Shown: positions 15,277-43,200 of the stretch, in pieces | How the letters are laid out: every line of letters begins with the position of its first letter | Numbering within the stretch: position 1 is the stretch's first letter | Source of the DNA: Psilocybe cubensis | Taxonomy: Eukaryota | Assembly: GCA_017499595.2 (NCBI GenBank) | Contig: CM039005.1 | Location: 186,001 to 250,000 of the forward strand | Direction of reading: 5' to 3' | DNA: 64,000 nt | Made by a program: the position numbers and the translations under genes | The notes under the pieces: generated by a model | Databases searched by the model: none | The model's input: the letters and a program-made list of their open reading frames with translations, nothing else | Told to the model about the DNA's origin: nothing

Positions 15277-16338
15277 AACCGCCGTGCCATGATGCTGTTG
15301 TGTATTACCAGTAGTTTATTAATCAAGGGAACTTGCTTGATACCTATCCCAACATTACGAGTCTTTACGTAAGTAAAGATGAGTTCTTTTATCCCCACAA
15401 CCCAGCGAGCAAAAATGTCCTCGCCAATTGTCCCCATCAAAATATTATTGATGCGATCAATGTCGTTACCGCTATCGGTATTTTCCTTAAGCGGTCACCG
15501 GACCCCCTAAGCAACCCCTTTCCAATTCATTCTACGACTTCTTTTTACCATTGGTTACTTTAAAGGTTGTTTTTGATTTGTTTTGATCGCAATGTGAATG
15601 TGCGTTTCCATAAAATTAATTATACCCAACAACAATAGTCCTACTCAATTCACTTTTTTGCGTTGTTGTTTAATTTTTAAAACCATGTGGAACCGTCTAG
15701 CCAACGTGCTTATATATTGTACTAATACTTAGAGATGGAACAAATGCACTCTTTGAACTATGGGTCTGAAAGGTTGGAAATAGAACTGTGCAGGCACACA
15801 CGTTCCTTGATATTGGTAGCTTCATCAATCAGAGTTCAAATAGAAATAATTACGCGTTCTTGGGTTCTGGGCGTTCTGTACTATTTGAATTTGATTTTCT
15901 GATTCATGATTGTTTCTCACGCATACCAATTTGTTCTTCCCCTACGTCGGGCGTCTATTGGCTTACGGTTAATATATTTATTGACGTAGTATAGACAATG
16001 CACTTTTCTCCGCACTGTTTTACCCATGGCTTCCGCGTTATCCCCCCGTTTCCAACAGTATGTTCACTGTTTTATCTCATTTGGTTATTACTTATTTTTT
16101 AGAGTCTTTCCGCCTCCCATGGATGATGTGTACATGGATCAGATGGATCTGAAAACCCTCTACCATTTCTCTTGGACTTGCAAGGAGCTAAACAACCGCG
16201 TTTCGGGCTATATGCGCCGCACCTTCCATCCCAAAAATTTATTTGCTCCTATCTTCAAACCCAATGAACATTTGCTGTTTCGTCTTCTCCAGTTCAAGAC
16301 TGGCCTGGTTATTTCAGGTTCCACCATTTTGCATTTTA

Positions 16339-17902
16339 CTTGTTTTAGTGGTCCAACGCAAAGCGTGGCATGACAAGACTTTACATCTCACAATTGTATA
16401 AAATATTTTTTAATCTAGATTTATATAACATAGTTAATATATATTAATATGTTCTGAATGCACAGCCAGATACTGGGCAAGGTTATGATTAATTACTATG
16501 ACTTAGGTCTACTACAAGCTTAGTTGTGTCAGACACAAAAAATAGCTGCACAGGTTATAAGGCCTAATTTTAGGGAAGAACTTATCTATTATAATTTTCA
16601 TACCTGCTAAATATTGAAGAATTCCAGATCTGCTGGGAGAATCCCGTATGGAAAACTGATGGAAGAATGCTCATGTGTATGGCTGCCCAAGTGGGGACAT
16701 ATTTCCCATAAATATAATTTTCTTATTTTTGAAAAGTGCATCAAGAGTGAAACAATATTGTGTGCAAAAACATTTGTTTGGTACGCATATTTCTTTTTGA
16801 CATAGTTTGATGTTGCTGTGAACACAATTGGCTGTGTGGAAACATATTTCAAGCATAATTTGCAAGTGTTAGTACATTATTTCTTCCCCAAAATACATTC
16901 AATGCATGGAAAACATTATTCAAAATGACCATCTCTTGACCAAAGTGGCCAGTGCTCAATGCAACTTGAGTGTAGTGACCGTGGGAATATCCTGCGTACA
17001 GTGTGCGCAGGATATTCCCACGACCTGCTTATTAATTCACGGCCAGTACAAACACCACAGCAAGTAAAATATAATAAGATCATCTAAACTAGGACTGAAA
17101 ATAATTATTATTGCCAAAAATACTTGTATTTTACCTAAAGTATATGCAATGCATCTCAGTAATATATCAGGAATTACCAGAGAAGTTCAAGTTGCTCAAT
17201 GCAAAGTGCGGCAACCGTGAGAATAACTTGCATACACTATATGCAAGTTATTCCCACAGTCTGCTTATTAATTCATGGCCAGTATGAACAGCACAACAAG
17301 TTTAATATGACAAGTTATTTGAAGTGGCATTAAAGATAATAGCTAGATACATAATGTTTATTATTCTTTATTCTATGCCACCACAGTCTACTAGTCATTC
17401 ATGCTAAATTTTTTTTGATAATAATAAAGCATTCTATTTACCTCTACTTGCCGTTAGAGGTGTATAAAGCATGCAAAACAGTTGGTATGTAATTGATTGT
17501 GACTAATTAATGGCCTTAAATCAGTTGAATGAGGTCATTATTATAAAATTTTTGGTTATGAGCGATGATTATCTGCGTCAAAATGTTTAACTTGCAATTA
17601 AAAAGTCATAATGTAATGGTATCTAATTTTGTTTTCTACCATATGGCAGCTAACCTATCTACCTAGCTAATATCTAGTATTTTAATTTCCATATCCCCTT
17701 GGTAGGAACAAAAACTAACAGAAATTCTATGATAGTAACCAATTATTAAGTCAAGCATACCGGTTAAGTAAAAAACCGGTATTAATTACGCAATTTTGAT
17801 GGCATCAATGATTTACTGATGGGGACAATTGGCAAGGACATATTTTTGTACAGTGGGTTGTGGGGATAAAAGAACTCGCTTTACTTACATAAAGTTTCGT
17901 AA
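16339..17902 (-). mobile_element. Inner non-autonomous Helitron-like element, same family as the outer one, inverted
   Basis: Reverse complement of 17761-17902 matches 15355-15494; reverse complement of 16339-16385 matches 40273-40319. A|T insertion site; excision restores the host frame (CAT TTT A|TC AAT); contains the same GTGGGAATAT..ATATTCCCAC palindrome (16981-17021). Confidence 0.85.
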
Positions 17903-19249
17903 TCAATTGTGCTAATATATGGATTCCGGGTGACATGGACATGTATGTCAAGCACAGATAAACATCCTCTTCATCGACATTACAATACCACTGGAGTGGT
18001 CGTTAAGGCCCTGTTCAGTACGGATCAGTTTCGGTTGCAGTGCACATTTCAGTTGCACTTCAACGTGACTGATCTGTGACATATTAGTCAGCGTAGCCAC
18101 AATCGTCGATGTCGTCGATAGACAGTTTCAAAATCTAATCTAAGTGCTCTTTCTGCTTTGCTTCTACTCGCTTCTGGTGTAATTCTCTTCATGGCACTTC
18201 AGGCTCACTGGTCTGATGAAGACCTGGAGGTCTTGATTGCCTTTCTTGTCAGTAAAAAGGCAGCTGCTGGAGATGGTCTCTCTTTCAAAGATGCCATCTG
18301 GACTGAGGCAGCTCAAGAGGTCAACAACAAGAGTCCCCCACTGAGAGGAGCTCCAAAAACTGCTGGAAGCTGTAAAAGCAAGCTGCATAAGGTGATGTCT
18401 TTTGCTTTTTAGATGTCATGATTCTTTCTAAATCTTTTTTAGCTGAAGCAAATCTTTAACATTGTTTCAGACATAAAGGCTCAATCAGGATTTAAGTGGG
18501 ATGAGGAAAGAGGAGCAGATATAGATGATACTACTGCTGAGGTCTGGGCAGCATATGAGAAGGTGCGTAGCTTTTTTTCTTGACTTGATCTATATTTACA
18601 ACTATTTGTAGAGGCACAAAGGAGCATCCCCCTTTCGGAACAAAGGCTGGGTATGGTACAACAAGCTTGTGCCTATTATGCCCAATGCTCCAAGAGGTGC
18701 ACATGTTTTTCATGCCTCAACCCAGTCACAGCAGTTTGTAAATGAGAACGAGGGAGGGGAAATAAGTGATGATGAGCTTGAAAAACCTCTATCTGGTTGG
18801 GGGGTACGTCATTTTTTCTATTTTTATTGCTTTATCTCATTATAAACATTTTAGTCTCCCTCACCTCCTCCTTCTGCTTCGCTTATCACATCTCAAAATG
18901 TGGTAATTCCAGCCAAACGACGGGAATCTGCTCTTTCAAGCGACACAGAGTTTTCAGTTTCTTATTCGGCCAAACGTTCTCGCAGTCACGGTTCCGAGCG
19001 TCCATCTGGTGCCATGGCCTTACATGGTATGAACAGTCGTCTTGATGAATTTACAGATGTGTTCAGAGAGGCTTTTGTTGGAAAGAGGGGTGGTGTTGAA
19101 GCAACTCCTTCTAGAAAGACTCGGGCTATGAAGCGCGTACAGCAGCTTGAAACGCAACTGTCTAATAGCCGTAAAGCGCAAATCGGCCGTATACAATTAC
19201 TGTATATTGTGCCCTACATGCCTCTGTAGTGTGAACCCAACATGCCAGC

Positions 19250-20800
19250 CAAGTACGCACCTTACATGTGCGCCCATTTTGATGATTTATATTGAGCATG
19301 CCTGTGGGAACCATGCTCAGTCTGGTGCACTAGGAGTTCTCATGGCATACCGATGCATTACATACGGTTTGGTGCCTTAGGGCATTACATGGCGTTTAAC
19401 AGCATGTTTAAAGCTCAATGGATGCTAGAGCCATGTTCAAGCTAGTGATCTCTTGGACCAGCGGCAGCTCATGCCACGCTGTGGGATTTGCATATGCAGC
19501 AGTGCCTTGGGGCCTCCAATGGCAGCAAACGAGAGCTATGCTCAGTCTGAGGCGCTGAATTCTTGAATCGGCGGCTCATTGGCATTTTCTACATTTTCTG
19601 GTGCTTCAGGGCATCGAATACGAACAAATGTCATGAGTGAAGGCTTAGTGCATGCCTATAGGAGCTGTGCGTAGTCTGGTGCATCAGGACTCCTTGGAGG
19701 GGGCGGCTCATGCCATGCTGTGACATTTATGCACCCTTTGGTGCCTCACGGCGTCGAATGACAGCAAACGTGAGCCGTGCTCAGTCTGATGCGCTGAATT
19801 CTTGAATCGGCGGCTCATTGGCATTTTCTACATCTTCTGGTGCTTCAGGGCATCACATAGCAGCAAATCTCATGAGTGAAGGCTCAGTGCATGCCTATAG
19901 GAGCTGTGTGTAATCTGGTGCATCAGAACACCTGTGACATTTATGCACCCTTTGGTGCCTCACGGCGTCGAATGACAGCAAACGTGAGCCGTGCTCAGTC
20001 TGATGCGCTGAATTCTTGAATCGGCGGCTCATTGGCATTTTCTACATCTTCTGGTGCTTCAGGGCATCACATAGCAGCAAATCTCATGAGTGAAGGCTCA
20101 GTGCATGCCTATAGGAGCTGTGTGTAATCTGGTGCATCAGAACACCTGTGACATTTATGCACCCTTTGGTGCCTCACAGCGTCGAATGGCAGCAAATGGT
20201 ACTCGTAAGGCTTAGTGCTTACCTATAGAATCCATGCTTATTCGGGTTCACTAGGGGCCCCTCAACTCGCGTAGGCATATGCTGAGCTTCAGACATGCCA
20301 TTTGGTTCCATTCAATACTCTGACATACCGGAATGTTTGTAAATGCCATCCACAGGGTACTATGAGACATCCCTTCAAGGCGTAACACACATTCTGGTGC
20401 CTCATAGCATCAAATGGTAGCAAACGGCATGCACTGAGCTTTGCCTATAGGAGCCGTTCTTAGTCTGGTGCTGCAGGCCTCCTTAAAAAGAGCGGCTCAT
20501 GCTACGCCATATAATATATGCACACTCTAGTGCACCAGGGCATCGAATGGCAGAAAACATGTGCCGTGCTTATTCTGGTACACCAGAATTCTTGAAGCGG
20601 CGGCTCAGGCCACGTTGTGGCATTTACACATATTTTGGTGCCTCAGAGCATCGAATGTCTAGTCTGGTGCACCAGGACTCCTTGAAGGGATAGACTATTC
20701 TGTGCCGGTGGTATTTACTAACATTTTGGTGCCTTGTGGCGTTGAATGAAACAAAAGCACATGTCAGAAGCTCAGCACATGCCTATGGAACCGAGCTCAA
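19250..20800. repeat. Left subterminal tandem array; degenerate ~100-120-bp subunits with a near-perfect 214-bp period in the centre
   Basis: TGACATTTATGCACCCTTTGGTGCCTCAC recurs at 19721, 19935 and 20149; recurrent GGCGGCTCA and AGTCTGGTGC motifs. Confidence 0.88.
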
Positions 20801-20978
20801 GGCTTTTCTGATCAGGATCTGTATATCAGCAGAAGACAAGGCTCATGCTATAACTCCGAGTTAACACTTAGAATTTTGTCAATGCCTAATGTAAACTCGA
20901 TTTTGTACTCCTCCAACTGTGAGCCGTACAAAAATATAGAGCCGTACAAAAATATAATAGATTTTTCTATATTGACTA

Positions 20979-23900
20979 TCATAGTCTTCCTTCCATCTTC
21001 TGAATCTGTTGCCTGTTCCATATAGAGAAGAAAACTCGCATATACATCACCGCTCTTTCCTGTGTCATGTAGCTAACAGCTTTCCGAATTTTGGCAATCC
21101 CACTATTCCCACATTCTGCAGCGCTCGAGTTGAGTTTTAGCAACTCTGGATTGTCAGCACAGTATGTGGACAGAAAACATGCCTCTCCACATTTATGCTC
21201 GCTTGAGTGGAAGATGTCAATAGCAAATAAAGTATCCTTGAAAAATTCGGGTTCACGGGACATGCAGTAGGGCTGCAGTGCACATGCAAAATCATAAACA
21301 ACAACTTTTGGAGCCTTCCTCCATCGGGTATAAATTGCCGAAAATACGTCGTTTCGTCCTTCGGCTGCACGAATGCAATGAAAACCGTAGCATACACTGT
21401 GTGTGCACCAGACACACATGATACCACCGGTCAATCGCTTTTTGGAATATGTCGAATAGTATTTGTGGCAAATATCTTCATCAATGTCAGCTCCCCCAAG
21501 ATCCAGTCCATTTTCATACGGTAAATTTGGGTAATAAGAGCGATCGCGAATGGCTGGCATTGCATAGCAGCATCCAGTCTATAATTCTATTTTGTTAACG
21601 TATGATTGTCAAATTAAAATAAGCATACCTTTAACCACTCATCCTGTGGTATATATTTGTCCAAAGGCGGTGCTTGGGACATTTCATGGACCCTCAATAA
21701 ATCAAACACCACCTTGGATCGTAGATAAAGCCATTCACAGACACCGAGTACATCAGCACTCAACTTTCCAGTCTTAATTTCGTGCTTAACCACTTGGTAC
21801 AGACTGGGGATGAATCGTAATGCCGATGCTTTGGAATCAAGAGGATTCCTAATAAAATGCCTAAGATCCATTAGAGAACTGTGCGTGATCATTTGAAGTG
21901 CATTTTCGTCCGAAGAAATCTACACAGTCATTCAGGAATCAATTATTAGGACATAAATACAAGATTAAAAACGATACCTGAGTGAAAAACTTTGTGTAAA
22001 TATCCAAAGGGTCACACTTAAGAACAACCGCCAGTCCAAAATGTGTGTTAAACAGTCGTCCAAGACTAATGTTGATTTCTGACAACTTCTCAACAAGATC
22101 GGGAATTTTTGTTATCCTCTCCACGAGTTTTTTATTACGATCGTATTCCACAGTTCCTTCGGAGAAAATCTGGTTTGATAAAGTGCTGAGTTGAGGTCCC
22201 TTTATAACAAAGCGTAGTAGGAGTCGAAGGTTTCGATTTGGGATGAGCTGTATATTTTTTACTGGACGTACATTCGACCGCTGAATTGATCTTTTCCCTT
22301 GCATTGTTGGAGGAGTCAAAGATGGAAGCAGATTTCTCCGACTGTATGCAACAGTAACACCATCCCATATAGTTGCATCCGGGGTAGGTCCACAAATAGA
22401 GCAAATCATATCCTGGCCAAAGTCCATGAGACGAATGTATGAAAACCAAGCAGATCGAAACAGTTTTTCATTTGAAAATGGAACCGGTGACTGTCTTGTT
22501 TGATACCGGCGGGACATGGTGAGTGTCCAGGACACAAAAGGAGTCTCCGAGGATGAAAATGCACTAGTATAATCGTCCAACAGGTCATGCGTAAACAAAC
22601 TGCGATTGTTAAAATTGAAGATTCCAAGATTGCTGCAGTCGGGGCCAACATATCGATGAGAGCAGCTGATACATCTTTGGACGGTGATTAAGGATACAAA
22701 GGCTCCTGTCAGTGTATATACAACACACTTTTGCTGCTGAGTTGGTCCTAATGGGTTGAATACAATGCGTGGATTTGAACAGCAGCAGGAATCTCCCTCG
22801 TTTAAAGGGATATAATCCGGTGGTGAATTTACTACCACTCGGGGAGGACTTGGCGGATCAGACTTAATTTGGGCCCAGCACGGAGGTGGAAGACGCTTGT
22901 GGGACACAGACTCAGGAATTCCTGCCATCTGACGTATTGAATTATCTAAATGGCAATAAATCAGCACAGAAAGTCGGGAAAAAGCAACAAACACTACATA
23001 CCACCTAAAAATTGGACTTCATTTGAGTTTGACGTATTGTCAACACTTCCATCACGGGCATTCCAGTCTCCTCGTATGAGCTGTTGCAAAGAATGACGAG
23101 CAGCCACGATATGTGCACATGACACTGCCCCATTGTCTCTGTTGCATCTCCATGATCCTGATCCCGAGTCCTCACCCCGATGTTCAACTACTGCTCTGTT
23201 TTTCAGCGTAGGAAACCATGTAAATGATGGAGTTGAAAAGTAGTTGTTGTACTGTCCATCTACTATACTTTCATTTCTGAAAAATAGAAATGTCTGATTG
23301 TTATTAGAATCTAAATGTAGATGTTATATTGAGTCCTAATGAGAGATAAGAGGATTCGTACCATTGCCATCTGTAGGCAGAGGAAGCTTGAATCCGTTTG
23401 CAACAGTTTCTCTCAAAAAGCGTTCATGAAAACATTCAAATTGATTGTGATTTCTGGGGCAAATGCATGTTTCCTTCCATACACCGTTGAGCTCCATCCG
23501 TTGAATGTGGTACCAGAGTTTCTGGAAAGAAATTTGCAGTGATTATTAGACAATTAACATTATTACTGATCAGTTTCACGCACTGTAGACTCGCGCCTAG
23601 AATTACTCCATCCATTTGCAACAAAAAGATTGCCAGTAAGCTGGTAAAAGCCACATTCATCAGCCAGTACTGCATCCAGGAAGTACGAGTATTCTTCGTC
23701 ATCAGTTCCGGAGGCCCCTTCATTCACTGATTTGCCCAACGCATCTATTTCTGGAACAGATACTCCATAATCTTCATCATAAAAAGGCGCTAATGCATTG
23801 GTATCATCTTGGAGTACTGTTTGAGTTTCGGTTTCGAATTCTTCCGCATTTTTAGAGTATGCAATTGGTGTTGATCGTTGTTTCTTTGCCAGGCGAGATA

Positions 23901-24033
23901 CTTTTCCGCTGACTCTTTTCTTCCGAACAGGAGTTACAATTGGAGAGATACTTTCATGCGCATTGTAGGAATATTGTACTTCGGTAGGGGAATCTGGAAG
24001 GACTGCATAAACAATGGGAGGTGAGTCGCTCAT
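20979..24033 (-). CDS. KDZ-superfamily transposase (HMGXB3-like), multi-exon, with SWIM-like and Cys-cluster domains
   Basis: SWIM-like CICP..ECFH and WRC..SCAH; Cys cluster (CCC..QRCISC..YVGPD..GIFNFNN..FTH); CSICG..IWDG; CHKYY..LTGGIMCVWCTHSVCYGFH..AEGRNDVF; YDFAC; DIFH..HKC; NSSAAECGN. The exons I translated appear open. Confidence 0.88.
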
Positions 24034-24099
24034 GTTTCCCAGAGTACAATGTGAATAGTAAATGACAACTCTATTATTCGTGGTCTGTATTTCATGCCG

Positions 24100-25090
24100 T
24101 GTAGACTACAGTGCTATCTATCAGATGTCTCCTTCCCTGCACATTGTCTGCGTCAAGCCACATAGACTACAGTATTGCACAGGTCTGTGCCTCATGCCAT
24201 GTAGACCATGGTACAACCCATTAGATGGCTCCAGCCTTGAAGGTAGTCTTTGCTTCAGGCCGCGTAGACTAGGGAATTGTATATCCGATGCCTCCTGCCT
24301 TGCAGGTGGTCCATGCGTCACGCCGTATAAACCATGGTATTGTCCATCAGATGGCTCCAGTATTGAAGATAGTCTGTGTGTCACACCGTGTAAACCATGG
24401 GAGTGTCCATCCAATGCCTTCTGCCTTGCAGGTGGTCCGTGCGTCACGCCGTGTAAACCATGGTAATGCCCATCAGATGCCTCCAGCCTTGAAGATGGTC
24501 TGTGCGTCAGGCCACGTAGACTATGGTAATGTATATCCAATGCCTCCTGCCTTGCAGATGGTCTGTGTATCATGCCGTATAAACCATGGGAGTGTCCATC
24601 CGATGCCTTCTGCCTTGCAGGTGGTCCGTGCGTCACGCCATGTAAACCATGGTAATGCCCATCAGATGCCTCCAGCCTTGAAGATGGTCTGTGCGTCAGG
24701 CCACGTAGACTATGGTAATGTATATCCAATGCCTCCTGCCTTGCAGATGGTCTGTGTATCATGCCGTATAAACCATGGGAGTGTCCATCCGATGCCTTCT
24801 GCCTTGCAGGTGGTCCGTGCGTCACGCCGTGTAAACCATGGTAATGCCCATCAGATGCCTCCAGCCTTGAAGATGGTCTGTGCGTCAGGCCACGTAGACC
24901 ATGGTAATGTATATTCAATGCTTCCTGCCTTGCAGGTGGTCTGTGTGTCATGCCGTATAAACCATGGGAGTGTCCATCCGATGCCTTCTGCCTTGCAGGT
25001 GGTCCGTGCGTCACGCCGTGTAAACCATGATATGGCCCATCAGATGCCTCCAGCCTTGAAGATGGTCTGTGCATCGGGCCGCCTAGAATC
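24100..25090. repeat. Tandem array of 63-bp monomers arranged as a 189-bp higher-order repeat
   Basis: TGGTAATGCCCATCAGATGCC at 24461, 24650 and 24839; the ORF track shows 21-aa periodicity on both strands. Confidence 0.93.
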
Positions 25091-25319
25091 TGCTATCTTC
25101 TGGTGGCACAGTATTATGTGCACACATGCCGCCTTGCATCGGGTGTGCATAAGGTGCGCATTGGGTGGCCTCTGCCTTGCAAAATGTTTGTGTGTGCGTG
25201 ACAGCACCATACCACCTGTCTTAGGTCTGCGGTATGAAGGTATTTATTTCTCAGTATATAACCAACGTTCATCCTAACTACTATCTCTTTATACCTCTTG
25301 TTCTATTTCGCACAAATCC

Positions 25320-26754: not shown

Positions 26755-28208
26755 CAATAATGTTATGATAACGGATTGGATTACCATAATCATTCTCTCT
26801 GGTATCATACTGAATGCATGAGCGCTGAGCCCTCAGGCAGTAGAAGGCATGAGGCACCAGATGTACAGGCATGCCATATAGCAAGTCCTATCGCCTGCCA
26901 TCTGTTTCTGTCCCAAGTCTAGAATCATGTGACCATGTCTTCATTTATTCACACGATGTGCTAGTTTCTTATAAAGCCCTAGCTGTAGACTGGGGCATGA
27001 GCTTCTAAGAAATATTAAACATACTAGATAAAGGGAATTTGTATTATCTATACGGATGTGCTATTTTAAAAAGTCTCCAATGAGTGTGGCACTGTTCATA
27101 TTCACTTTATGTATCGACGGATGACCATCAATGGCTGTGCATATCGTGGGAATGCTGATCCCACATCTTTGAGGCCAGGTGAAATGGATGCTTCTGGTCG
27201 CACACACCGCTTGGTAGTCATATATACTTACTAAAATAGTCACACAAATTAGGTGAGAGTCGCATACAAACCAGTGGTTGCATATACTTGACAAAATGGT
27301 CACATATTAGTTGAAAGTCGTATACCCCTAACGTAAGTCACATACTAAGACTTGCTGTTCATGACGAATTAGAAAAGCTTAGAGATGTACCAGTAAATAG
27401 ACCATGTATTCTTGGAAAGGCATCAGCAAACGGGTAAGAGTTGGTGGCGGTCATGGAAAGCGTGGAGATTAGTAGGAAGAGGTAGCTGAAGAGAAAATAT
27501 CTACTCACTTGTGCCCACACATGCGCATGCTCACCTTTCACAAAGTGCCGTCTTTGAACCTATCATACATATTTCCATACCGTGCACCCGCTCACCCACT
27601 ACAGCACTACTTCACTCAAATCATTGTACTTGTTGACATTGATTCCAATGCCTGCATGCATATACATCCCATAGCAATGTGGGTATGGAGTCTTTATCCC
27701 AGGCTGTGCCATCATCCCCCCGCTCGTGCTTGAGTTTATGTTTGTATTCTCCTTTGACTGTAGATATTTGTTCTAAGCATGGTTTGCATCTAATATAGTC
27801 TTCTTCTCTAGACCAATAGTATTTATTATATACAAGCACAAGGCGCTCTTCCTTGAGTTTGCTCTTTGCAAACACAGAGTTAAAGATCAGTCTCATGTCC
27901 ATATATTGTGTTTCTTCTAAGGCACTGTTTGAAGGTAACAACAATATGCTAGATGCGGGTGTCTATTTTCAAGTTGTCTTTCATGTTCTAAAACACCACC
28001 CAAAATGTAAGAGCACTAAATAATAGAGCTTAATGTACCATGTATACAACCTCTCTCTCATATTACTCCTTGGATGTCTGTCAGCCATGGCCGTTCAGAC
28101 GTAACACTGACAAATTGTGGTTACATCAATATTTGATTGCGTCTTTTCCTTCTTTCCGTCTTCTGTTCGTCACTGACTCTTGGACCCCATTATCCCTCAA
28201 TTTTCATT

Positions 28209-31081: not shown

Positions 31082-34000
31082 ATGAAGGTATGATTTCATT
31101 TTTTGCGAGTGGTGATATAATAACCCATGGTAGATACAGGACATCAAGAGAAGAAAAAAAGGGGACGAAGCAAGGCTTCAACCACTTTGGTTCCTCCGAT
31201 TCCTGAACATGAGGGACGCTATACCCTCCGTCGAGGTTATTTTACTATGTCATAGCCTGAAAGCTGAAACCTTGCTGACCTTCATATTTACCAGGGAAAC
31301 AATATAGCACTTCTGTTGAGAGAAGTAAAAATAGTGCTTCTCACCAGCGCGTGAAAAATATTATCTTGGAGACTATTCAAGACAGCACGGACATAGATAA
31401 CTCTAAGGGTGTACGTTTTTAACATCGTCTAAATCTCTCCATGTATTGACGCAGAGTACATAGACCGGTGGTTCTTCAAACACGGCCACCAATGGAGCCG
31501 ATAAAGCCGTTCTAGATAAGAGGCCAGATCCGTCAACATCTGTTCATGACGCCGAAGTTCAGCCAGAGCAGACGCAAAGTCCTAACATACCTGACCAAAC
31601 ACATAACATTAATCAAACACTGGTATGTTCCCGTCTTAATTCTATTATATTTATATATATATATAATCTTTGAAGCAGGAATCAAGTTCCGCTTCTGCGT
31701 CCCATACCAGGACTTTGAATTTGGATACCTTTGACAATAATACTGCCATAAATACGGTGTTGTATGACCCAGAATCAAACAATCACCCGACGGTGCCTGA
31801 GGTGAGCATGATTGATAAACCTCGCTACTGCTGAATCTATCTAAATTGTAAATGTAGCCATCCAATCACGTCTTTGGCTTTAAAGAGGGGTCTACTTCTC
31901 ATGTAGACTCTCAGAATGGCGTGTCAATAGATGAAGCCTATTCCCTTTTCCATGCGCCAAAGGAATCTCACAACCTGCAGCCGGTATTGTTCACTATATA
32001 TTTCTGTGAGGATCCAGACCTTAAAATGAATCTTAGAATGGAAATGCCGCTCTGTTTTCGCCACTTGAGAGCCAGAATATGACTTTTACACAGTTGCTGC
32101 AGGACGCTATTATGGTGAGCATGTTGTATAACATTGAAAATGATCATCTTAAGAACGTTATGTTAAATACTGCAGCCTGATACGCCAATCAATCACACAT
32201 ATACCATGGACGTTAACATGTCCCACCAGCTGGTAAGCTTTTGTCTATTCGCTAAGGAGGTAGAGATTAAACCATTTTGCTTGTAGATCTCCAATAGCCA
32301 GTTTGATATGTTATATCCAGAAAACTTCTCTACGAGCAATGGTGCCCAGCAATTCTCTGAATCTCATATTACCCAGGACAATACTCAGGATCTGCCTACA
32401 CGTGGCAGTACCTACGGTTCTCTGGACTTCAAATTTGATGCACAGACAAATGGCACGCTCGACACTCAGAACCCGGTAAGCTTTTAATTGGTAAAGATAT
32501 CTCTGCTGACTAATCTACAATACTCTAGAATATGACGGATATCAATTCGTTAATTCTGAATGCTCCCGAGGACAGTACGGAATCCAATAATATCAAAGGT
32601 CGTCAAGTTTCCGCAAGCAGTCTCAATGAAACCACTCCTATCCTCACCATTCCTCCCCACATTTTGTCTCTCATTTCTCCAAAGCTTCAGGAGGAATTTG
32701 ATATGTCTGTTGCAAATCGTCAGAAGGTATTTTTGGAGTACTCGGAGCGTGAACGCATGATTTGCGCACCTGCTCAGCGAACATTACCGGAGATTCGACA
32801 TGCACTAGAAAATATTGACCGTTGCATTGACTCCATCCAACGTCACAATCTCCGTATTGCAGAAATTCAGGAGGAGGTAGCAAAGGCTCAGCGCAAATTT
32901 CAGGATGCCGAAAACATCAAATCGTTGGAGGAAAAGTTGGCTTTGCTGCGGGACGAAGAAAAACGTGCACAGTCAAATCTTGAAAACGGGACAGTAGAGA
33001 CGTTTTTGGACCTAAAGCAGGCTTTGATGAGTATTCGGTCGCAGATTCGGGATGTCGGCCTTCTTCTGGATGTAGCATCGGCCTCGTTGAAGAACTCCAA
33101 GTCACAGAGCCCTTCGGCTTTGTCAGCTGGTCAATCAAGTGTAGTGCAGCCACCAGCTCCAAAGCCCAATCGCTCAAAATCGACTCAGCCAGTTAATGAG
33201 AAGCCCAGTGAAAAGCGCGCAGCACCTTCAAAGCCTCCTCCTCGCAAAAAGGCAAAAACAGGACGTCCTAAACTGATCGAGGAAGAGTCCGACTCCGACG
33301 AGACAATCGAAGATATAGGCGTCGAGACTATGGATATTATCCAGGAAAGGACCTGGGCGTCCATGAACCTGCACGATCGTGGTAAATTTGAAGGTATGTG
33401 TGTCTGTGTGTGTTTTTAAATGTCTAATCTCTCTAATTTTCAATTCTATAGCCGGTGCAAGACAGGCCATGCATCTCTACGAATCCACTGGGGATATATC
33501 TCATTTTCATATCCGCTATCGGCTTGCTCTTCGCCACATCCAATCTTTCTTACCAGAAGAATGCTTTCATTCCAAAAAAGTGGCTATTGCAATCTTCCGG
33601 ACAGCTTCCCTGAACTTAGTGTGTCGCTTTCACAAACGCTTTTCAAAGAACAAAATCCACGATGGCGTCGGAGTCATGAGAATCCAGGGAGTCCCATACC
33701 AACCCAGCTACAATTCAAGAGAAGGAAAAGCACAAGAACCGCAAGAGGGATATATGCATTGTGGGTGTCTGGTTGACGACGTCTTACTGGATTTCTTTTT
33801 TTGGAAGACTTTAACAATCACATCGCCACTTGAGAGGCTAAAGGGGATTTCGGAGCCAATGATGCAAAGCGTTTTTAGGCCCCGTATGCGCGCCTTTCTT
33901 ATCCAACTTTTCAAGCTATACACATGTTTGACAGCTGACGACATCTACTGTTCTACTAGAGAGCAAGGACAGCCCGCATCATACCGAGAAAATGAACTCA

Positions 34001-34119
34001 TGAAGCTCAGTATTGTTCGTTTATTAGCTAATTGGAATATGCGTACTGGGCGGCGTGTTTTCTTCCTAGATCCAGATGATCAAAATTCTCAGGAAAACAC
34101 TTCGACTACAGAGCATTAG
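31082..34119 (+). CDS. KDZ cargo gene: many small 5' exons, coiled coil, basic/acidic linker, C-terminal domain with CRFH and HCGC motifs
   Basis: ORFs 32532-33419 and 33379-34119 are linked by a GT-AG intron (~33394-33450). Upstream exons are inferred from splice signals, so the start is uncertain. Confidence 0.65.
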
Positions 34120-34178
34120 ACTACTAGGTAGCTTAGATAGAATAGCATATATTCTAATAAACCACTAAGCCAGCTATT

Positions 34179-34731
34179 TCATCTAATATACAGGTTTGAA
34201 TCCGGATGGAAGCTGTAAATATTCATCAATACTCTGTACCCCTTGATCATATAGCCATAATGCCTTGTGTGCATGCTAAGTTTATTAAGTTTATCATCAG
34301 AATAGAGAAATAAGCATCTTCTTACGACGAGTTTTGCCCTTAGCCTTTCTGCAAGGGTTTCCATTGCCTTTACCCGCTTTAATGGTAGTTTATACCAAGC
34401 TATGCGAGTAAATATTGTTTGAAATCGAGGCTATGATATACGATATGAATCGAATATTAAGTATAATGCAGAGAATGTAACGTACAAATGATCTCAGATA
34501 GAAACAGTGTGTGGATCTAAGACACGCGAGGGATAGATTGTATGTGTCGTTGTTTACTGCATGCCTCTTCTTAATATACTTTTTTAAAGAGTCTTGTGCT
34601 TCAGCGAGTTCTTGAACCGCATCTCGAAGATAAAGAAGACTTTTTATAAGTCGTTCCTTGTTTTTGCGTTTGCGTTTTCCAGAGTTTATTGGTCTGAGAG
34701 ACACTGCGGCTTTTCGACGAAATAATGGCAT
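34179..34731 (-). CDS. KDZ cargo gene: small basic two-exon protein, unknown function
   Basis: MPLFRRK..KRKRKNKERL..FYLRSF|PRFQTIFTRIAWYKLPLKRVKAMETLAERL; one GT-AG intron joins two ORF-track ORFs in frame. Confidence 0.6.
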
Positions 34732-34954
34732 GAGAAAACACGGGAGAATGGATGATATAAGAAAAGCCAAAGGTCCGGGGAATGCCTGGAGAAATCTAAC
34801 CAACGATGTAAAGGCCCCCTACTTAGTAGAGAGCAGTATAGCTTGGCAAGCGTACCCGCCCCATTTCCTCAAGATTGGATACTGGTGCGCTCAGACCTCG
34901 CATTTGCAGCCTTATGTATGGCATGCCCTTTGCCGCCAGTCAGAGGGGTGCTGA

Positions 34955-35730
34955 ACCAATGCCCTGAGCCGCCAGTAGTGAAAGGAGGGGTGCACCCTAG
35001 CCTCTAGAGTTGAGAAATGAGCGCTGGTGAGCCATAAGACATGCCGGTTCAAGGTGGTGCTGTGGGGCTTAGCTTTGTAGGAATACTGGAACTGATGCCC
35101 TGAGCCGCCAGTAGTGAAAGGAGGGGTGCGTTGAGGCACGACCATGAGGAAGTAAAAAAATTGATGCCCCTAGCCTCTAGAGTTGAGAAATGAGCGCTAG
35201 TGAGCCATAAGACATGCCGGTTCAAGGTGGTGCTGTGGGGCTTAGCTTTGTAGGAATACTGGAACTGATGCCCTGAGCCGCCAGTAGTGAAAGGAGGGGT
35301 GCGTTGAGGCACGACCATGAGGAAGTAAAAAAATTGATGCCCCTAGCCTCTAGAGTTGAGAAATGAGCGCTAGTGAGCCATGTGGCATGCTGGTTCAAGG
35401 TGGTGCTGTGGGGCTTAGCTTTGTAGAAATACTGGAACTGATGCCCTGAGCCGTCAGTGCTGAAAGGAGGGATGCGTTGAGGCGCAACCATGGGGAAGTA
35501 AAAAAAACTGATGCCCCTAGCCTCTAGAGTTGAGAGGTGAGCACTAGTGAGCCATGAGGCATGCCGGTTCAAGGTGGTGCTGTGGGGCTTAGCTTTGTAG
35601 GAATACTGGAACTGATGCCCTGAGCCGACAGTGCTGCAAGGAGGGGTGCGTTGAGGCGCAACCATGGGTAAGTAATTAGACTGATGCCCAAAACCTCCCA
35701 TGCTGAGAATGCTGAGCCGCCAGTGTTCAT
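34955..35730. repeat. Right subterminal tandem array, 173-174-bp unit, about 4.5 copies
   Basis: ACTGATGCCCTGAGCCG at 35091, 35264, 35437 and 35611. Confidence 0.93.
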
Positions 35731-36561
35731 AGCAGGGGTGCCATGAGACATACCCATGTTCTTGAGGCACATAAAGGTGCAAACTCCCATAAAGAAACCT
35801 GAGGCACTTACATGATAATAAAACATATCTTGGCAAGCGTCCCCGCACCCTATCATCATATACAAAAATGTAATGGCAGGCCCGGTGATGATGGACAGCA
35901 GGGTGCCGTGAGCCACATTGTTGTGGAAATAACCAAACCAAAGGCCTGTGCCGCCGTCTTTAGTGTCTTGAGCATGCCGCACCACTTGTACACCACAAAC
36001 AGTCAACATTCAACCTCAGAAGCGTTGTAATTATGCTTGGCAAATCTCAAGGCACCAGGATGTTTGTGCATGGCATTCGACGCTCAGAGACACTCTTGTC
36101 AAACATAGTTTTATAAGTGTCAATAGAGGTACTCATTACACTGTGCCATCCCGTATTTCTTACTTCACACAAGTTTAAGACTTGTAGATATAGCTTGCTC
36201 ATACTAAAACATGTATTTTCGTAATTTTGGGTCATTCTGCGGGACAGACATCCGCAGTGACTGAAATAATCTAATGAGGGATCACTTCCGAGTAGCGACT
36301 CTATATATTGGATCAATGCGGGGTACTTACTTCGCCTTGATGTCAGGTTTGAGTTTAGCATATATGTCAGGTGCGTTATGACTGCATTATAACCCAGCCG
36401 GTAACCCCCGTAAAGTGGCTTTGATTGATTTGTTTCAAGCTGATGTTAGTATGGCAGATACATATCTCTCATTGACAGACAATGGTGTTCGAGAGGCATG
36501 GGTTAAAAGGCACACAAAAGATGTGGAGGAAGAAGAATAGTTAATTTATAGTACTTGATTA

Positions 36562-37888
36562 TTATTCTAATCCAAATCCACTTGTCAACACTTGATAGCT
36601 TCTCCACATAGCCTCTGCTATTTTATCCCTTTTTGAAGTTGCGCGTAAAACTTCTGCTCGACGAGGAGGTCCATTTCCAAGAACACCATAATTGTTATGC
36701 TGAACATCTGCAAAATCGACAAAGTCTAAAATTTCTTCAGGATCGTGGTCGCGAATAAAATTGTGTGTAGCAGCAAGAGCGGGAGGAATACGAGCTTGAA
36801 TATCCATACTGAACTCGGGTGGATGGACCAAAATTGTGAATCGCCTTTTGAGAACACCAAAAATACGTTCAATAACGTTTCTTGCGGATGCATGTCGGAG
36901 ATTGTATAACTCTTCTTTTGTTGCTGGTCTACAAAATATAATTTAGAATGTAAGCAGAAAAATTATATAAAATTACTCACCGAACTGAAGCCCGTCCCCA
37001 CTCTGCTAAATGATAACGAACACCCCGATATGGAACCAAAAGTGAATCACATATTCCAAAACCTGCATCCGCCAAATAATATTTTCCATCTGGAATAGTG
37101 AGATCAGAAAGACGCGCATCGTTATACATGCTAGCATCTGCAGCACACCCGTCCCAACCACTAAGCATATATTGAAATCGCAAATCAAAGCCACAACAAG
37201 CAAGTGTGTTTTGAGATACACCACCTTTGCGATTTCGTGAAAATTGACGTTCTTCTGCAGAAGGACAGCAGTTTATATGTGTCCCATCCATAGCTCCAAT
37301 AGCACCTTCAAAAAATGGAAAAAACTTTGGATTTGATCTAATTTCTGGTGGAATTGGATCAGATGCGGCCGGAAGTTTGACGTAAGTTGTATAAAAAGGG
37401 CTTGAAGATAGTGCATATAAGATCATGCGAAATGACCTGGATATAATGATTACAAAAGACATATTTATAATAAAATCTTATGCTTACCTTGATATAGTTC
37501 CATTTGCGTGCTGAAATCGCTCTCCAACATGTCGGATTGAAAGACCAGTAACACAAGTATAGAGAAAAATAGCCAGATGCTCTTCAAGGGTGATGTGTCG
37601 TGAGTCTTTTAATCCAGTAGAACGTAAAGCCTTGACAAGAGCCTTGAAAACATGTGGTTTCATCCCTAGTTCATTCTTCATTCGGTTAGGATGGCCTTGA
37701 AGAAGTTCTTGTACCCATGCATGTCCAGTAAGGATAGATGTATGGTAAGGAGTCTTGACATAGAATGGTGTACTGAACAGTTTAGCTGCAGAAGCCACGG
37801 TGTTTACAAAAAACAAGGCTGCAGCAGATGCCAGGCGAAGCCGGCCAGACTCAGTGTCAGAATCGTCGGAATGGTTAGGAAGTGACAT
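36562..37888 (-). CDS. PIF/Harbinger DDE transposase (3 exons)
   Basis: EEHLAIFLY..ERFQH..TISR; GAMDGTH; SGWDG..AD; YYLADAG; YNLRHA..RNVIERIFGVLKRRF; HNFI. Confidence 0.95.
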
Positions 37889-38919
37889 TGATCAGATTAT
37901 GTAATGTCACATGTGCAACTGAAATGTGCACTGCAACCGAAACTGATCCGTACTGAACAGGGCGTAACCTATGGTGCCAAGGTTCTTTTGTCCAACTGAT
38001 TACAACTTGTCAATCGGTGGTAGAGTGCATTTTGGGGTATTATAGCAGTATGTCCCCAATGTCATGTGTCAAAACAATGTTAACTTCAATTTTGTTCTAC
38101 TGCAGCCGGCGTCATGAATTTTGTTACCTTTGAGAAGGTGTACAGCTTGTATCCAAATGCTACCTTTGGACATCAAGTCTCTCTGTTGCAACCTTCTGCC
38201 AACCTCAAGCGCGCGCAAAAATTTCTTGCAAAATATCATTCCTGTGGCTTGAAATTTGTTCTTTCCATTCCATCGCAAACTTTGAAAATGGACCGCCATA
38301 TCCAAAGCAGGATACAGTCTATCAGGGACAACGTAAATGTTGGGTATAGTTCATCTCGTGGTCATGTTCTTGTTGTGCTGGATTACGATCCTTATCCAGA
38401 GTTGTTCTCTCCTGGGATTAGACGGGTTGGCGACAGGCATTGTTGGGTTTATTCTTTGCCTCTTTTACCCAAAGCAAATCAGACTTCCTTTGTTGAAGCC
38501 AATTCGTGGGCATTGTTGCTCAATGAATTTGATTGTTTGCATTTTGGTGTCCGTCGCATCAGCGGTATCGCATTAGATTTTCACTACACAGCGGCAGATG
38601 TTTACCAATTACACAAGCGTGTCAAAAAAGCTATCAAATCCTGGGAAAGGGGTATAAGGTGTGTGCTCTTTAGTTTTAGTATTTGTCAATTTAATTCCTG
38701 TAATGTAGGCAAAAAGATGACCGTGTACATGCAACTGTTTTGTATTTGCTATCCAGAAAGGCAGATATTTTTTGGTTGCATTGCCCTCAACCACAAAGCC
38801 TCTTGTGGAATGGATATTTGTAATTTCTTCCATCCTTAGTCAAATTTTTGTTCGAAATAAACTTGTGTTCTCATCGTCATTCTTTTTGTCTTAATTTGTA
38901 AGTTTGACTTGCGGATGAG

Positions 38920-39100
38920 CGTGGGAATATCCTGAGTACAGTGTACGCAGAATATTCCCACGGTCAACCTCTCCCGATATTCAGCCGAGTGTGGGAATAT
39001 TCTGCGTACAGTGTACGCAGAATTCTCCCACGGACTTCCTCGCCGATATTCAGCCGAGTGTGGGAATATTCTGCGTACAGTGTACGCAGGATTCTCCCAT
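38920..39100. repeat. Three tandem ~41-bp palindromes (period ~70 bp) between the convergent Helitron genes
   Basis: GTGGGAATATTCTGCGTACAGTGTACGCAGAATATTCCCAC-like units separated by near-identical ..CCGATATTCAGCCGA linkers. Confidence 0.9.
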
Positions 39101-39245
39101 GGGGTGCCAACTAACACTTTCAGATAATTTCTGTCATGAAAATGACTTGACAAATTATTCCTTGTTATTTACAATGTTCACGCAAATGGATTGATTGTTC
39201 GTTCAGCACATTTATGATATCCTTGTCTTTCTATGTACATATGTA

Positions 39246-40220
39246 TTAATCTTGGGACATAGTATTGCTATTGTGGACTGTGTCCTCATTTAAGCGCATA
39301 CGTGCCATCCTCTGTTGCGTGTCTTCAATGTCAATCTGACCTTTGTACAGCTGCCTCTTTGTCCTACACAAAACAGCAACCTGTCTTTTCGCTGGAGTAT
39401 AGCGCAACCGCATTCTGAGAATATCAGCTTTCTGTTGGAAGTTATAAATGGCTATGAGACTGTTCAATGTAACATTGCTTACCTCTCTTGCCTCCTGGTC
39501 CAAGACAAGTATTCCGCGAAGAGCGACAACAAATTTGTACTTGTTTCCTTGGGCAGGAAATGCGACAAAGGCAACACTGATCTCGACAATGTCTCCAATT
39601 CGTATGGAGGCAGGATTATAAGAATAATATCTGTTGCAACATGATATTAGTTTGGTTGTGATGTGTTGTTGGTATTTTCTAAACATACCTGGCTATTCCG
39701 TCAGGAAGTATCTCCCGACAAAGAAACTGTACCTTGTTATCGATTGCGTGGATGAAACTGTCCCCTACCATGGACGCCAACACGTTATCAGGGTCGACCA
39801 GGGGATGAAAACCTATGTTGTCAGATTTGTCTTGATATGTGGATACCTTCGTGAAATATTGGCTATGCGCATGGAAAACATTGAAACCCGTGTCTTTGTG
39901 AAGAACTGGGTCATAGCCGCTGACGCTGTCCGCAGGAAAATTGTTTGCAAAACGGAGGAAAACTTCTTCTAGCTTTTCCATCACCTTATTGAACACAATG
40001 TCTCCGAGTCCCGTGATAGCAATGGCGGTACGTAAATATGGTTGTTGCTTGACCGTTCTGTCGCGGCTGTAACAGTCCTCATTTGTAATTAATTCACCTC
40101 AATGGAGTGGACGTACGAAGCAGGCTTTGCCATTGGTGGTAGCATCTTGTCGCTAACTATGCCTTGGAGTCTGAATATCACTTCGTCCATTGCACCAATA
40201 TCCACGTCAAAGTTGGACAT
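39246..40220 (-). CDS. Helitron-borne gene, putative OB-fold/ssDNA-binding-like protein (multi-exon)
   Basis: MSNFD..DEVIFRLQGIVSDKMLPP; HSQYFT; VDPDNVL..IHAIDNKVQF; NPASIRIGDIVEISVAFVAF..FVVALRGILVLD (beta-rich pattern). The fold assignment is inference. Confidence 0.65.
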
Positions 40221-43200
40221 ATTTATATTATATTATATATATATTATATTATTACAAAGCGTGACGCTGAATCGTAAAGACTCGTCATGCCACGCTCCGC
40301 GGTGGCCCACTAAAACAAGTTTATTGACCAGACACTTCCATCAAGGAGTCAAAGATGATTTCTCAGTAATAACATTGGGGTAAGTACCGAAATTTCTTGC
40401 ATTTTATCATCGAGAAGTAGGTAAAACATGCCTAGTTACTCGTTTAAGAGCACTTTTTTCGTAAAAATTTCCGGATATAAGTCGTGTCACGAGTGACCTC
40501 CCCTAAAGTGATCCACTGCGAGTCGGTGGACCAACGACGCGATATTTTTTCCATCGAGTACGCATCATGTCCTGCACACACACATACACAGTGTTCTCAA
40601 GGTCAGCCAATGTGGGCCTGCTCCTCAAATTGACCTAGCCCCTGGTCTGAGCCCCTGTACATCGTGTTGCTTACTTTGCCGTAGTTGAGGGACTTCAAGA
40701 TCGGCATGTACATTGGAAAGGGGTTCTATATAATGTAAAGGATGGTAAGCAAAGGCAGCAGTGAACCATAGCGACTCACTAGCATGATTACAGACACCCC
40801 TCCACCTCTGTAACGCCCCCATCTATGCTTGATTGCAGGATCACTGTCAGCCAAATAAGACTGAACACAGAAGGTCAGTTGAATGCGTAACAATTGTTTT
40901 CATGCGCTCACATGAGTATCGTGTCAGTCACAGAGTTGGAGGATCGTATAAGTGCCATGCCAGGAGCGAGAGGGGTCAAAGATGGCGGAGAGGGGGCAGG
41001 TGGAGGAGAGGTTGTTTTTGACATGCGAGTTAGGTCAGTGTATGCTCATAAACATTGTCTCCAGTACTCACGACGACCTTCATGTACCGCATGTCAACTC
41101 CCATTCTGTACCAAACCGCAATAGTATCAGGCTGGAACCCATCCCCGTCACCAAAAAGACACAGCAGAAACGTTGAGTGAGGGGATGATTTTGCCCGCTC
41201 ATCGTGTCAGTAGATTTGCATCGACCATTATGTTCAGCAGTTGCTTGACGAGCTACATATGCGAGAAATAGCGGGAGGGAGGTCGAGGCTAGCTTTAGCC
41301 GCAGGAAAGGTGCAAGTCTTTCCGCTTCGCATTCCCTAAGGTGATCCACGTTGCAAGTCAGAAACCCGCCTTTTGCGCTGACTGTTGTGTCACGGCCTAC
41401 TCTACCTCAGGTAATGCGCTGCAACTCGGTGGACGCGATATTTTTCCCTCATCGAGTACGCGTCTACCGTGTCCTGTACAGCCAGTACTCACAAGGTCAC
41501 CCGTTACCCCTGTGTGTCAATTTGTTGCTCATCTCAACCGTCCATGAGTGCCTTCGCTGTGATCATACGCTAGCGTCTGAAGGGTGCTGGTATTCTCCAT
41601 ATGATAGTCAAATTCCGCCTGGCGCAGCGCACATGCTGCGAAAGTGGTCAATGCAGTGGTCAAGTTTTACTTCGTACCATTCCACTATTCACGCTGACTA
41701 CATGAGTCTGACGACAAAACTGAAGGTGAGTGTTGCAGCACCTGCCACGCATTGTATCCACCACATTCACGTAAACGCTGCTTCCAGTACTGACTATGAC
41801 CTTGGCGACCCACAATTCAGCTCTCATTGAGGGAAATGATGCCTTTTCCCCCGAATCGCATCAGTAGATGTGCATCAAGCATTATGCTCAGCATTCACGA
41901 GTTGCCTATGCGAGCAGGGATGGAAGGGAATTTGAGCCTGAGGGGTAACTTTATCCCCGGGAGTGGTGGAAATCTTCCCGAGTGACATTCCCCTAAGGTG
42001 ATCTGCGCTGCAAGTCAGAAATCTGTTTTTTGAATTAGAGATGTGAGTGGTGACAATTTGATGTGTCAAACCAACGGATTAACTTCTTCACAAATCCATC
42101 AAAAAAATTTGTGAAAGGTCTAGGGCGGAGGGGCGGTACTCTATGTGTCCTTGTTCTTATTGATGGCCACTCACATACCACTGCTAGCGGCCATCCCGAG
42201 GGATTGTTTTAGCACACCCGTGCCTGAGCCACAGCAGACACGCTATGCGCCGTCGACTCGGCCGTTTGAGGTCTTTCAATTCTTTCTGACCGTTGGGGCC
42301 TGTGTCGAGGTCCCCGTTATCCTCGTATGTGGGGACCCTGGTTATCAGGGAGAAGTGTAGCACATGCGATTCAATGTGCAGTTCCCGGATGTCAGAGCGA
42401 GTCACAGCATCCAGGGCCTCATTCTCTTTCCACCTCAGGTTATCTAACCAATGTAGCGGGGCGAGCGTTTACCATGGTGTGTAGTCTGCCTTACGACTGC
42501 TCTTATGTTGGCCACCACTTGGTTTCGAGGACAACATATTCCTGTGTCTCTTGCATCGGACGCGTGGTTTATATGTCCCAGTCGTAGAACACACTGAACC
42601 CGTCGTGTGGGCCCAGAGGGATTTGGGCTTTGGGGACGTGTTTAAGCCTTGCTTTGTGTTTGTGCTATGTTGTCTGTAGATCCCATATGGGTCCTCGGGT
42701 GTTAAACGTTGAAGGGCCCTGCACCTGCGCATTGGTTCAAATGGGCTTGTTCTAGAGGGTATATCTTCTTCTCCCACTTTCTCCATATTCTCCGCTATAT
42801 GGTGCCTTATCATCGCCTCGGAAAACATGGATTTACATAACATGGCGCTAATGGTCGGGGTACATGTTCGTAGGTCAAACTGTACGCCCCCTTGAATTCA
42901 GCTTTAGGTTGGTATTTTGGTACATTCGAATCATTCCATGGCAGTTACGGCGTTTGTGGGAGTTCTCGATAACGGTCCAGTGTCAACGCACTGTTTAGGA
43001 TGGACCCCATGAAATTCAACTCACATCGTCATCACTTGCTCTTCAATGATTAACCCTGGAACTTCACCGACAACACGCGTAATGGACCTTTCATCATCAT
43101 TATCTTCCCATCAAAAATACCGCGATAAGGTTGTTCTGTAGTTTTGTGTTACCATCTGCCATGTTACGGGAACAAACGGAGACACTAAAACCACGGCCCT

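Follow-up and report, generated by a model that had tools for sequence, protein, structure and literature searches.

A block of 25 kb in the genome of Psilocybe cubensis raises the question of whether several mobile elements accumulated one inside another at a single locus or reached it together. It lies in the window, the whole stretch of 64,000 nucleotides analysed here (GenBank assembly GCA_017499595.2, contig CM039005.1, positions 186,001 to 250,000 of the forward strand), whose first letter is position 1 of all coordinates. An earlier inspection of the letters (the sequence-only reading) had described the block as a Helitron hosting a second Helitron and a Harbinger element, the latter being itself interrupted by a KDZ element, with a distinct signature at each junction. 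All the signatures it gave are present in the sequence, and the topology holds when confronted with protein continuity across the sites and with empty-site forms in public sequencing runs. The block is confirmed as a real stack of four mobile elements, each precisely bounded:

15355–40319, plus strand: outer Helitron-like non-autonomous element, 24,965 bp, 5′-TTACGAG ... ACAAG-3′, inserted between A and T without duplication
16339–17902, minus strand: inner sibling Helitron-like element, 1,564 bp, GC content 0.34, no long open reading frame (ORF), inverted relative to the outer element and lying within its cargo gene A
18007–37964, minus strand: PIF/Harbinger element, 19,958 bp, or 2,719 bp without the KDZ-type element and its duplication
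19177–36407, minus strand: CxC4/KDZ-type DNA transposon, 17,231 bp, flanked by the 8-bp duplication CCGTAAAG

The supported topology is that of a Helitron-like element that contains its smaller sibling and, separately, the Harbinger element with the KDZ-type element inside. Subtraction of the guests (24,965 − 1,564 − 19,958 − 3) leaves a host of 3,440 bp, in agreement with the growth from ~3.4 kb to ~25 kb proposed by the sequence-only reading. The closest named protein matches are from P. cubensis (75–98% identity), those of other Agaricales being more distant. We favour, with a probability of about 85%, four insertions that took place separately, one upon another, at a polymorphic locus in a Psilocybe cubensis-like genome.

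Empty sites in public sequencing runs

At least part of the segment 15000–19400 was found in thirteen runs from five studies. Positions 15000–34999 of the window were compared with four of the 15 listed runs, X5, X6 and X12 as contigs and X14 as raw reads. Holes in contig sets prove nothing and reliance was placed on positive junction evidence. The search for empty and intermediate alleles proposed by the sequence-only reading yielded the empty form of all four sites but no intermediate allele at the locus.

A 36.9-kb contig of run X12, at the single-copy depth of 25, runs through 15000–15356 and continues with the window from 40322 (29/30 letters). This contig joins both flanks, and therefore the entire 25 kb is absent from this locus in X12, with a clean A|T junction; depth is zero on the Harbinger and on the KDZ-type element in that run. 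The sibling-free form is provided by 7 reads of X14 with a joint from 16337 to 17902 that omits 1,564 bases. The Harbinger-free site is found in an X6 contig and in 445 X14 reads that reach 18006 and proceed with the window from 37968 onward (30/30 letters), with a single TAA. The KDZ-free Harbinger is found in an X5 contig that reaches 19176 and proceeds from 36416 onward (22/22 letters), with one copy of CCGTAAAG. In X6 the depth on the KDZ-type element is 11–34 per bin from 19002 on and zero on the Harbinger segment 18335–19001, and two contigs have other letters before 19177. These other flanks and the lack of Harbinger depth indicate that the KDZ-type element resides elsewhere in X6, with its left end exact.

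Genes interrupted by the insertions

The sibling and the Harbinger lie in one gene of the outer element, and the KDZ-type element lies in a gene of the Harbinger:

16026–16338, 17903–18006, 37968–38049, 38084–38659 and 38707–38820, plus strand: cargo gene A, a host-type protein that is multi-copy in Psilocybe cubensis
18191–19176 and 36416–36540, plus strand: Harbinger Myb/SANT-like gene, split by the KDZ-type element, stop codon at 36538–36540

The cargo gene A paralogue P0115 aligns to 16026–16337 and picks up at 17902; it then aligns to 17960–18006 and picks up at 37966. Like P0115, paralogues P0113 and P0114 align on both sides of the sibling site and of the Harbinger site. Since these paralogues are uninterrupted, the two insertions both break a frame that is continuous elsewhere. 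The copy in the window has in addition a +1 frameshift at 17959/17960 and is missing 40 residues of the paralogues, so that cargo gene A is broken even after both excisions; about 700 X14 reads contain the stretch missing at 17960. The annotated P. cubensis paralogue P0114 begins right after the same 40-residue gap, which points to a deletion subfamily of at least two copies.

For the KDZ-type element, copies of CCGTAAAG are found at 19169–19176 and 36408–36415, can be extended in neither direction, and occupy an identical codon phase within a reading frame. An 8-bp duplication had been announced by the sequence-only reading, which gave no coordinates for the KDZ element; it is now placed on both sides and is a single copy at the empty site of X5. 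A shared 8-mer is in itself no more than chance would give, since the two 1.1-kb zones searched have 25 of them in common. The placement is fixed independently by the empty site of X5 and by homologues of the interrupted protein. When the truncated Myb ORF of 124 amino acids was used as query, 21 matches were obtained, one of them identical (P0117). The alignments of the other 20 all stop at query residues 82–113, and the proposed junction is at residue 107. Eleven of these 20 homologues were retrieved, and all run on for 40–50 residues with a conserved tail. Removal of 19177–36415 creates a 148-amino-acid ORF to which the 11 homologues align in one piece up to residues 138–148 (E 1e-21 to 1e-54), whereas with the unexcised ORF they reach only residues 104–116 (E 1e-10 to 1e-32). 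This continuity on the excised ORF defines the KDZ-type element as 19177–36407 with an 8-bp duplication. Its ends are complementary at 7 of 13 bases, with no clear terminal inverted repeat (TIR).

Other delimitations of the KDZ-type element were discarded. Removal at the 11-bp direct repeat 19292/35968 yields no meaningful ORF, and motifs of the element extend to 36093. Another 11-bp repeat, 19141/28566, was set aside as chance (~13 expected). The search for 8-mers whose removal creates long ORFs gave 190 candidates, mostly due to a 63-bp tandem array (see below), and was not decisive; a blind scan inside the Harbinger for an 8-bp repeat combined with a TIR gave nothing convincing.

Two general statements of the sequence-only reading need adjustment in view of these data. 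It had stated that each excision restores a reading frame, which is correct locally at the three sites while cargo gene A stays frameshifted at 17959/17960. It had also proposed that all three insertions hit transposon genes; this applies to the KDZ site in the Harbinger Myb_DNA-bind_3 gene, but the two others are in a single cargo gene of host type.

The PIF/Harbinger element

The Harbinger TIRs (18007–18058 and 37913–37964) are perfect over 51 nucleotides (18008–18058 and 37913–37963). They had been described as 52 bp long, but their outermost base is mismatched (G/G); the TAA duplication described with them is found on both sides, at 18004–18006 and 37965–37967. The element has the hallmarks of its superfamily: a DDE_Tnp_4 transposase, a Myb/SANT second gene, TIRs, and a 3-bp TWA duplication. 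Its transposase is encoded opposite the Myb/SANT-like gene:

36565–37891, minus strand: Harbinger transposase gene, with DDE_Tnp_4 (PF13359) matched on two exons (E 5e-08 and 1.3e-05) and found again in a second scan, no stop codons within the matched exons

The two genes converge and their ends are about 25 bp apart. The Myb_DNA-bind_3 domain (PF12776) was detected with an E value of 8.7e-10 on P0117, the annotated truncated form, which maps to 18191–19226.

Ends and target of the Helitron-like elements

The outer element is flanked by A (15354) and T (40320) and the sibling by A (16338) and T (17903), as the sequence-only reading had noted for an A|T insertion free of duplication. The structures found at the ends are:

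15357–15368, plus strand: 5′ terminal repeat, complementary to 40274–40285 at 12 of 12 positions, starting 2 nucleotides inside the end and kept in the sibling
15362–15379, plus strand: small 5′ hairpin overlapping the 5′ terminal repeat, −4.7 kcal/mol, equalled by 13 of 200 shuffled sequences
40274–40319, plus strand: 3′ end, with the right repeat at 40274–40285, a stem-loop at 40289–40306 and a 13-nucleotide tail ending in ACAAG

Both members of the family end in 5′-TT ... CAAG-3′. Their ends are 84% identical over 109 bp and 87% over 47 nucleotides, and the similarity begins and stops exactly at the proposed termini; both elements are preceded by A and followed by T. In the sibling, 9 of the 12 positions of the terminal repeat are complementary and the stem of the 3′ stem-loop is retained, with another loop and bulge. 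The inner insertion can be read as A|T or as T|A and in no other way (the joint is ambiguous by 1, and codon continuity adds to this), which excludes T|T; the outer one permits A|T or T|T, so that only A|T suits both. The layout of the ends is HLE2-like, with a 12/12 repeat followed by a stem-loop and a short tail, and the target is A|T. A near-perfect palindrome of ~45 nucleotides is repeated in both elements, twice in the sibling (16964–17034, 17205–17314) and as three tandem 70-bp units in the outer element (38904–39102).

Several observations weigh against the assignment to Helitrons. The ends have neither the TC nor the CTRR of canonical Helitrons, and the 3′ stem-loop folds no better than shuffled sequences (z −1.1). 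Among 447 X14 reads that bear differing flanks directly before 15354/15355, 285 have no A at position −1; the A|T target is therefore demonstrated for two insertions and not for the whole family. No Rep/helicase Pfam match was found in the six frames of 18007–37490, in 15770–16338 (plus strand only) and in 37968–40319 (both strands), scans that left out 15355–15769 and the inner element 16339–17902, nor in the ten long ORFs examined from other parts of the window. The Helitron label of the sequence-only reading thus finds a basis in end structure and target but not in a RepHel protein, none being found in the scanned parts, and the name and the rolling-circle mechanism are drawn from the ends and the target.

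With no Rep/helicase in the scanned parts, no TC/CTRR, unremarkable hairpin energies and many 5′ flanks without A, the outer and inner elements might belong to another class that inserts without duplication, or be dispersed segmental copies. We regard this as rather unlikely. The ends are sharp and common to two members, many different flanks abut exactly at 15354/15355, and two resolved insertions are without duplication. The 12-nucleotide terminal repeat, the stem-loop following the right repeat and the short tail correspond to the HLE2 layout as given in the consulted parts of PMC11417382 and PMC5148889, and the captured gene fits Helitrons, for which gene capture is typical according to the part of PMC4289320 used here.

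Amplification of the outer element with its sibling

The left part of the outer element and the sibling have equal, high depth in every run examined. In X14 the depth inside the pair is ~590–710 reads, versus 25–39 in the flank. Contigs of X12 across 16338/9 and 17902/3 have depths of 396 and 303, and the contig of the 5′ end has 484, for a single-copy value of 25; the X6 contig across 16338/9 has a depth of 464 versus 11 at the flank. The unit usually found dispersed is the outer-plus-sibling pair rather than the 3.4-kb form, in roughly 12–40 copies, a figure for which the word depth of contigs is only a rough guide. The high depth of the pair, the varied flanks, and the small number of X14 reads that skip the sibling (7) indicate that this nested composite multiplied as a unit. 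The inverted orientation of the sibling would keep its 3′ end from serving as a stop on the transferred strand.

Additional joints were observed in X14 within 15354–17960, namely from 16125 back to 15354 (772 bases; 11 reads), from 15377 to 17665 (omitting 2,287 bases; 12 reads), and several between opposite strands. They suggest that this genome has more copies of the family at other sites, rearranged, in tandem or nested.

Stacking in place or arrival as a composite

The ability of the family to multiply with a nested sibling inside makes it conceivable that the 25-kb composite, with the Harbinger and the KDZ-type element already on board, arrived in one rolling-circle event. The only other allele seen at the locus, clean A|T without the whole 25 kb and with no intermediate, would also be accounted for. 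The Helitron-like element would then be a vehicle for whole cut-and-paste transposons, and its passengers would gain a copy-and-paste route that they lack alone. The sequence-only reading had likewise considered that the KDZ element could in principle be carried by the Harbinger or by the outer Helitron, both of which keep intact ends. The amplified Helitron-in-Helitron pair does bear out such carriage of passengers in kind. For the complete composite, arrival in one step is nonetheless distinctly improbable. The Harbinger depth in X14 is ~14.5, against ~600–700 for the Helitron-like pair; together with the 445 Harbinger-free reads, this means that almost all copies of the pair are without the Harbinger, which favours stacking in place. 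No second copy of a Helitron/Harbinger or Harbinger/KDZ junction was observed in the left half of the block in the four runs.

Stacking in place has its own weak points. No intermediate allele at this locus was found in the four runs examined, and the order of events is accordingly not shown by them. The reads cover the left five of the eight junctions, and for the three on the right the support comes from the sequence of the window, from the paired duplications and from the letters at loose ends of contigs. A misjoining of repeats during assembly, so that the nest would not be one molecule, might be suspected in a repeat-rich region whose right-hand three junctions are without read support, but it is a very remote explanation because a chimeric join would not yield matched duplications (TAA, CCGTAAAG) or frames that close exactly on removal, because other runs continue beyond the empty sites with letters of the far flank (22/22, 30/30 and 29/30), and because the public annotated protein P0117, possibly derived from the same source assembly, is identical to the KDZ-truncated Myb ORF.

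We propose the following history for four insertions stacked in place. A non-autonomous Helitron-like element with two cargo frames would have received its inverted smaller sibling in cargo gene A, and the resulting pair would have multiplied as a unit to become the form in which the family is usually found. A copy of this pair would then have inserted here between A and T without duplication, the rolling-circle HUH nuclease/helicase being supplied in trans. A 2.7-kb PIF/Harbinger cut-and-paste element would have entered the same cargo gene, duplicating TAA. Finally, a 17.2-kb CxC4/KDZ-type cut-and-paste element would have entered the last exon of the Harbinger Myb-like gene and duplicated 8 bp; the last 41 residues of the Myb-like protein are replaced here by 17 unrelated ones. 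The data show the boundaries, the four empty sites, the excess of copies of the pair and the separate location of the KDZ-type element in another run. We infer the order of the last three steps from the topology, and the enzymology of the insertions from family membership. This Harbinger copy probably depends now on the Myb-like protein from another copy.

Content of the CxC4/KDZ-type element and of the outer element

The KDZ-type element comprises a transposase gene and several repeat regions:

20979–23018, minus strand: KDZ-type transposase gene, a 359-amino-acid exon with CxC4 and exons 21853–21626 and 21584–20982, no internal stop codons
19286–20750, unstranded: left subterminal repeat array, units of ~214–239 bp and shorter motifs
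24119–25174, unstranded: 63-bp tandem array, 13 overlapping 300-nucleotide copies spaced by 63 bp, ~17 units
34953–36093, unstranded: right subterminal repeat zone, four 173-bp units followed by single motifs to 36093

CxC4 (PF18717) was matched with an E value of 1.5e-46 (1.2e-45 in a second scan), and the P. cubensis protein P0013 is 99.5% identical over the last exon of the gene. Counting against the KDZ label, the KDZ transposase model PF18758 has no match on the exons, or on P0013 even at E≤1, and is listed for none of the 112 homologues of the transposase. This Pfam model may be out of reach of this branch. As it has no match, the label is taken from CxC4 and from the 8-bp length of the duplication. 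No TET/JBP domain was found in the six-frame Pfam scans (18007–37490; 15770–16338, plus strand; 37968–40319, both strands), and SWIM was not detected in the KDZ-type element.

Motifs of the left array return inverted near the right end, weakly (E 0.13–1.2). Twenty-two X14 reads connect 20686 back to 19700, which indicates that the number of units in the left array varies between copies or strains. The 63-bp array yields stop-free frames of 323 and 334 amino acids on opposite strands, without family matches, that are most likely not genes. Further inside the element, ORF 33367–34116 has one homologue (51%) and ORF 28526–29149 no usable atlas match.

Besides cargo gene A, the outer element carries a second reading frame:

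39246–40098, minus strand: second reading frame of the cargo, made up of neighbouring ORFs (148 and 139 amino acids), no family

No Pfam family was found in cargo gene A, in this second frame or in the outer-element parts scanned (15770–16338, plus strand; 37968–40319, both strands). Within the length range searched, the matches of cargo gene A were four paralogues from P. cubensis and nothing else. Its look-alikes are clusters of fungal “hypothetical proteins”; an F-box present in 11% of one lower-ranked cluster is a lead only.

Elsewhere in the window

Upstream of the nest is an ordinary host gene (10407–11846), with an open frame of 479 amino acids that matches Mem_trans (auxin-efflux-type membrane transport). 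Downstream is a Copia-type long terminal repeat (LTR) retrotransposon, whose LTRs (51781–52072 and 56751–57042) are 98.6% alike. It encodes gag, integrase and RVT_2 on the minus strand, the RVT_2 domain being split at 53195/53196, and lies between 144-bp inverted repeats (51087–51230 and 57378–57521; 96.5%). The segment 51087–57521 may be another nest, in which a TIR element has received the LTR element; no clear duplications were seen around it by eye.

Comparison with known systems

Nested transposons are common, and the nest as such is therefore unsurprising. It is an ordinary product of transposon activity, and each component is a member of a known superfamily, itself new. No Helitron or KDZ element of Psilocybe was found described in the literature searched. 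The comparisons that follow draw on parts of the cited reports.

Canonical Helitrons (HLE1) are described with TC...CTRR ends, a 3′ hairpin and A|T insertion, and HLE2 elements with 12–16-nucleotide terminal repeats, a stem-loop after the right repeat and T|T insertion (PMC5148889, PMC11417382). The family described here shares with HLE1 the A|T insertion without duplication, seen at two insertions only, and a hairpin close to the 3′ end (about 10–12 nucleotides before it in HLE1; stem-loop 40289–40306, 13 nucleotides from the end, here), but not the TC/CTRR termini. With HLE2 it shares the terminal repeats and the stem-loop that follows, but not the T|T insertion. Transposase phylogeny is the decisive criterion for HLE2; with no Rep/helicase partner found in the scanned parts, the family is assigned to neither group.

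HELPO1 and HELPO2 of Pleurotus ostreatus, as far as covered by the part of PMC4289320 used, are likewise from Agaricales and have an AT target, no duplication, a subterminal 3′ hairpin and captured genes, and an LTR element is reported to lie nested within one HELPO copy. They differ by their ends, T[C/G]...CTRR or CTTG versus TT...CAAG here, by families that include Rep/helicase copies, none being found in the scanned parts here, and by the pair of 12-nucleotide terminal repeats that distinguishes the present elements (PMC4289320). The CTTG end of HELPO2 indicates that deviant ends occur in Agaricales (PMC4289320). FoHeli1/2 of Fusarium oxysporum (HLE2/Helitron2) resemble our elements by a right repeat ~30–45 nucleotides from the 3′ end followed by a stem-loop, by a small 5′ hairpin and by non-autonomous derivatives, whereas their target is T/T (FoHeli1/2 insert between TNAT and T) and not A|T (PMC5148889, PMC11417382, in part). 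The locus defines an Agaricales Helitron-like family that combines HLE2-style ends with an A|T target and tests the linkage of these traits; it also shows that a Helitron-like element which has received another element can go on multiplying. Since public runs differ at this locus, the order of the steps could be established from population data.

The Harbinger resembles the two-gene elements of the Nuwa-like lineage in its DDE_Tnp_4 and Myb/SANT genes, TWA duplication and TIRs (PMC12730594, in part), its sole oddity being the 17-kb guest in the Myb-like gene. The CxC4/KDZ-type element compares with KDZx1 of Cryptococcus deneoformans and with Zisupton/Dileera, which also have CxC4 before the transposase core and a duplication on insertion (bioRxiv 10.1101/2024.08.15.608186; PMC12730594). 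Large size and extra ORFs without known domains are shared as well, and KDZx1 is given without detectable TIR in the portion consulted (same sources). The duplication is 8 bp for Zisupton and Dileera, and 7 bp with CA..TG ends for Kyakuja (PMC12730594). The element described here is longer than those of Cryptococcus (17.2 kb versus 6.4–10.9 kb) and differs from known KDZ elements, as presented in the parts used, by its long subterminal repeat arrays and by PF18758, SWIM and TET/JBP not being detected (bioRxiv 10.1101/2024.08.15.608186; PMC12730594). Few complete structures have so far become available for the class according to the same partial sources (PMC12730594, bioRxiv 10.1101/2024.08.15.608186), and the present element adds a clean worked example of a large CxC4/KDZ-type transposon with base-exact ends, duplication length and full content.

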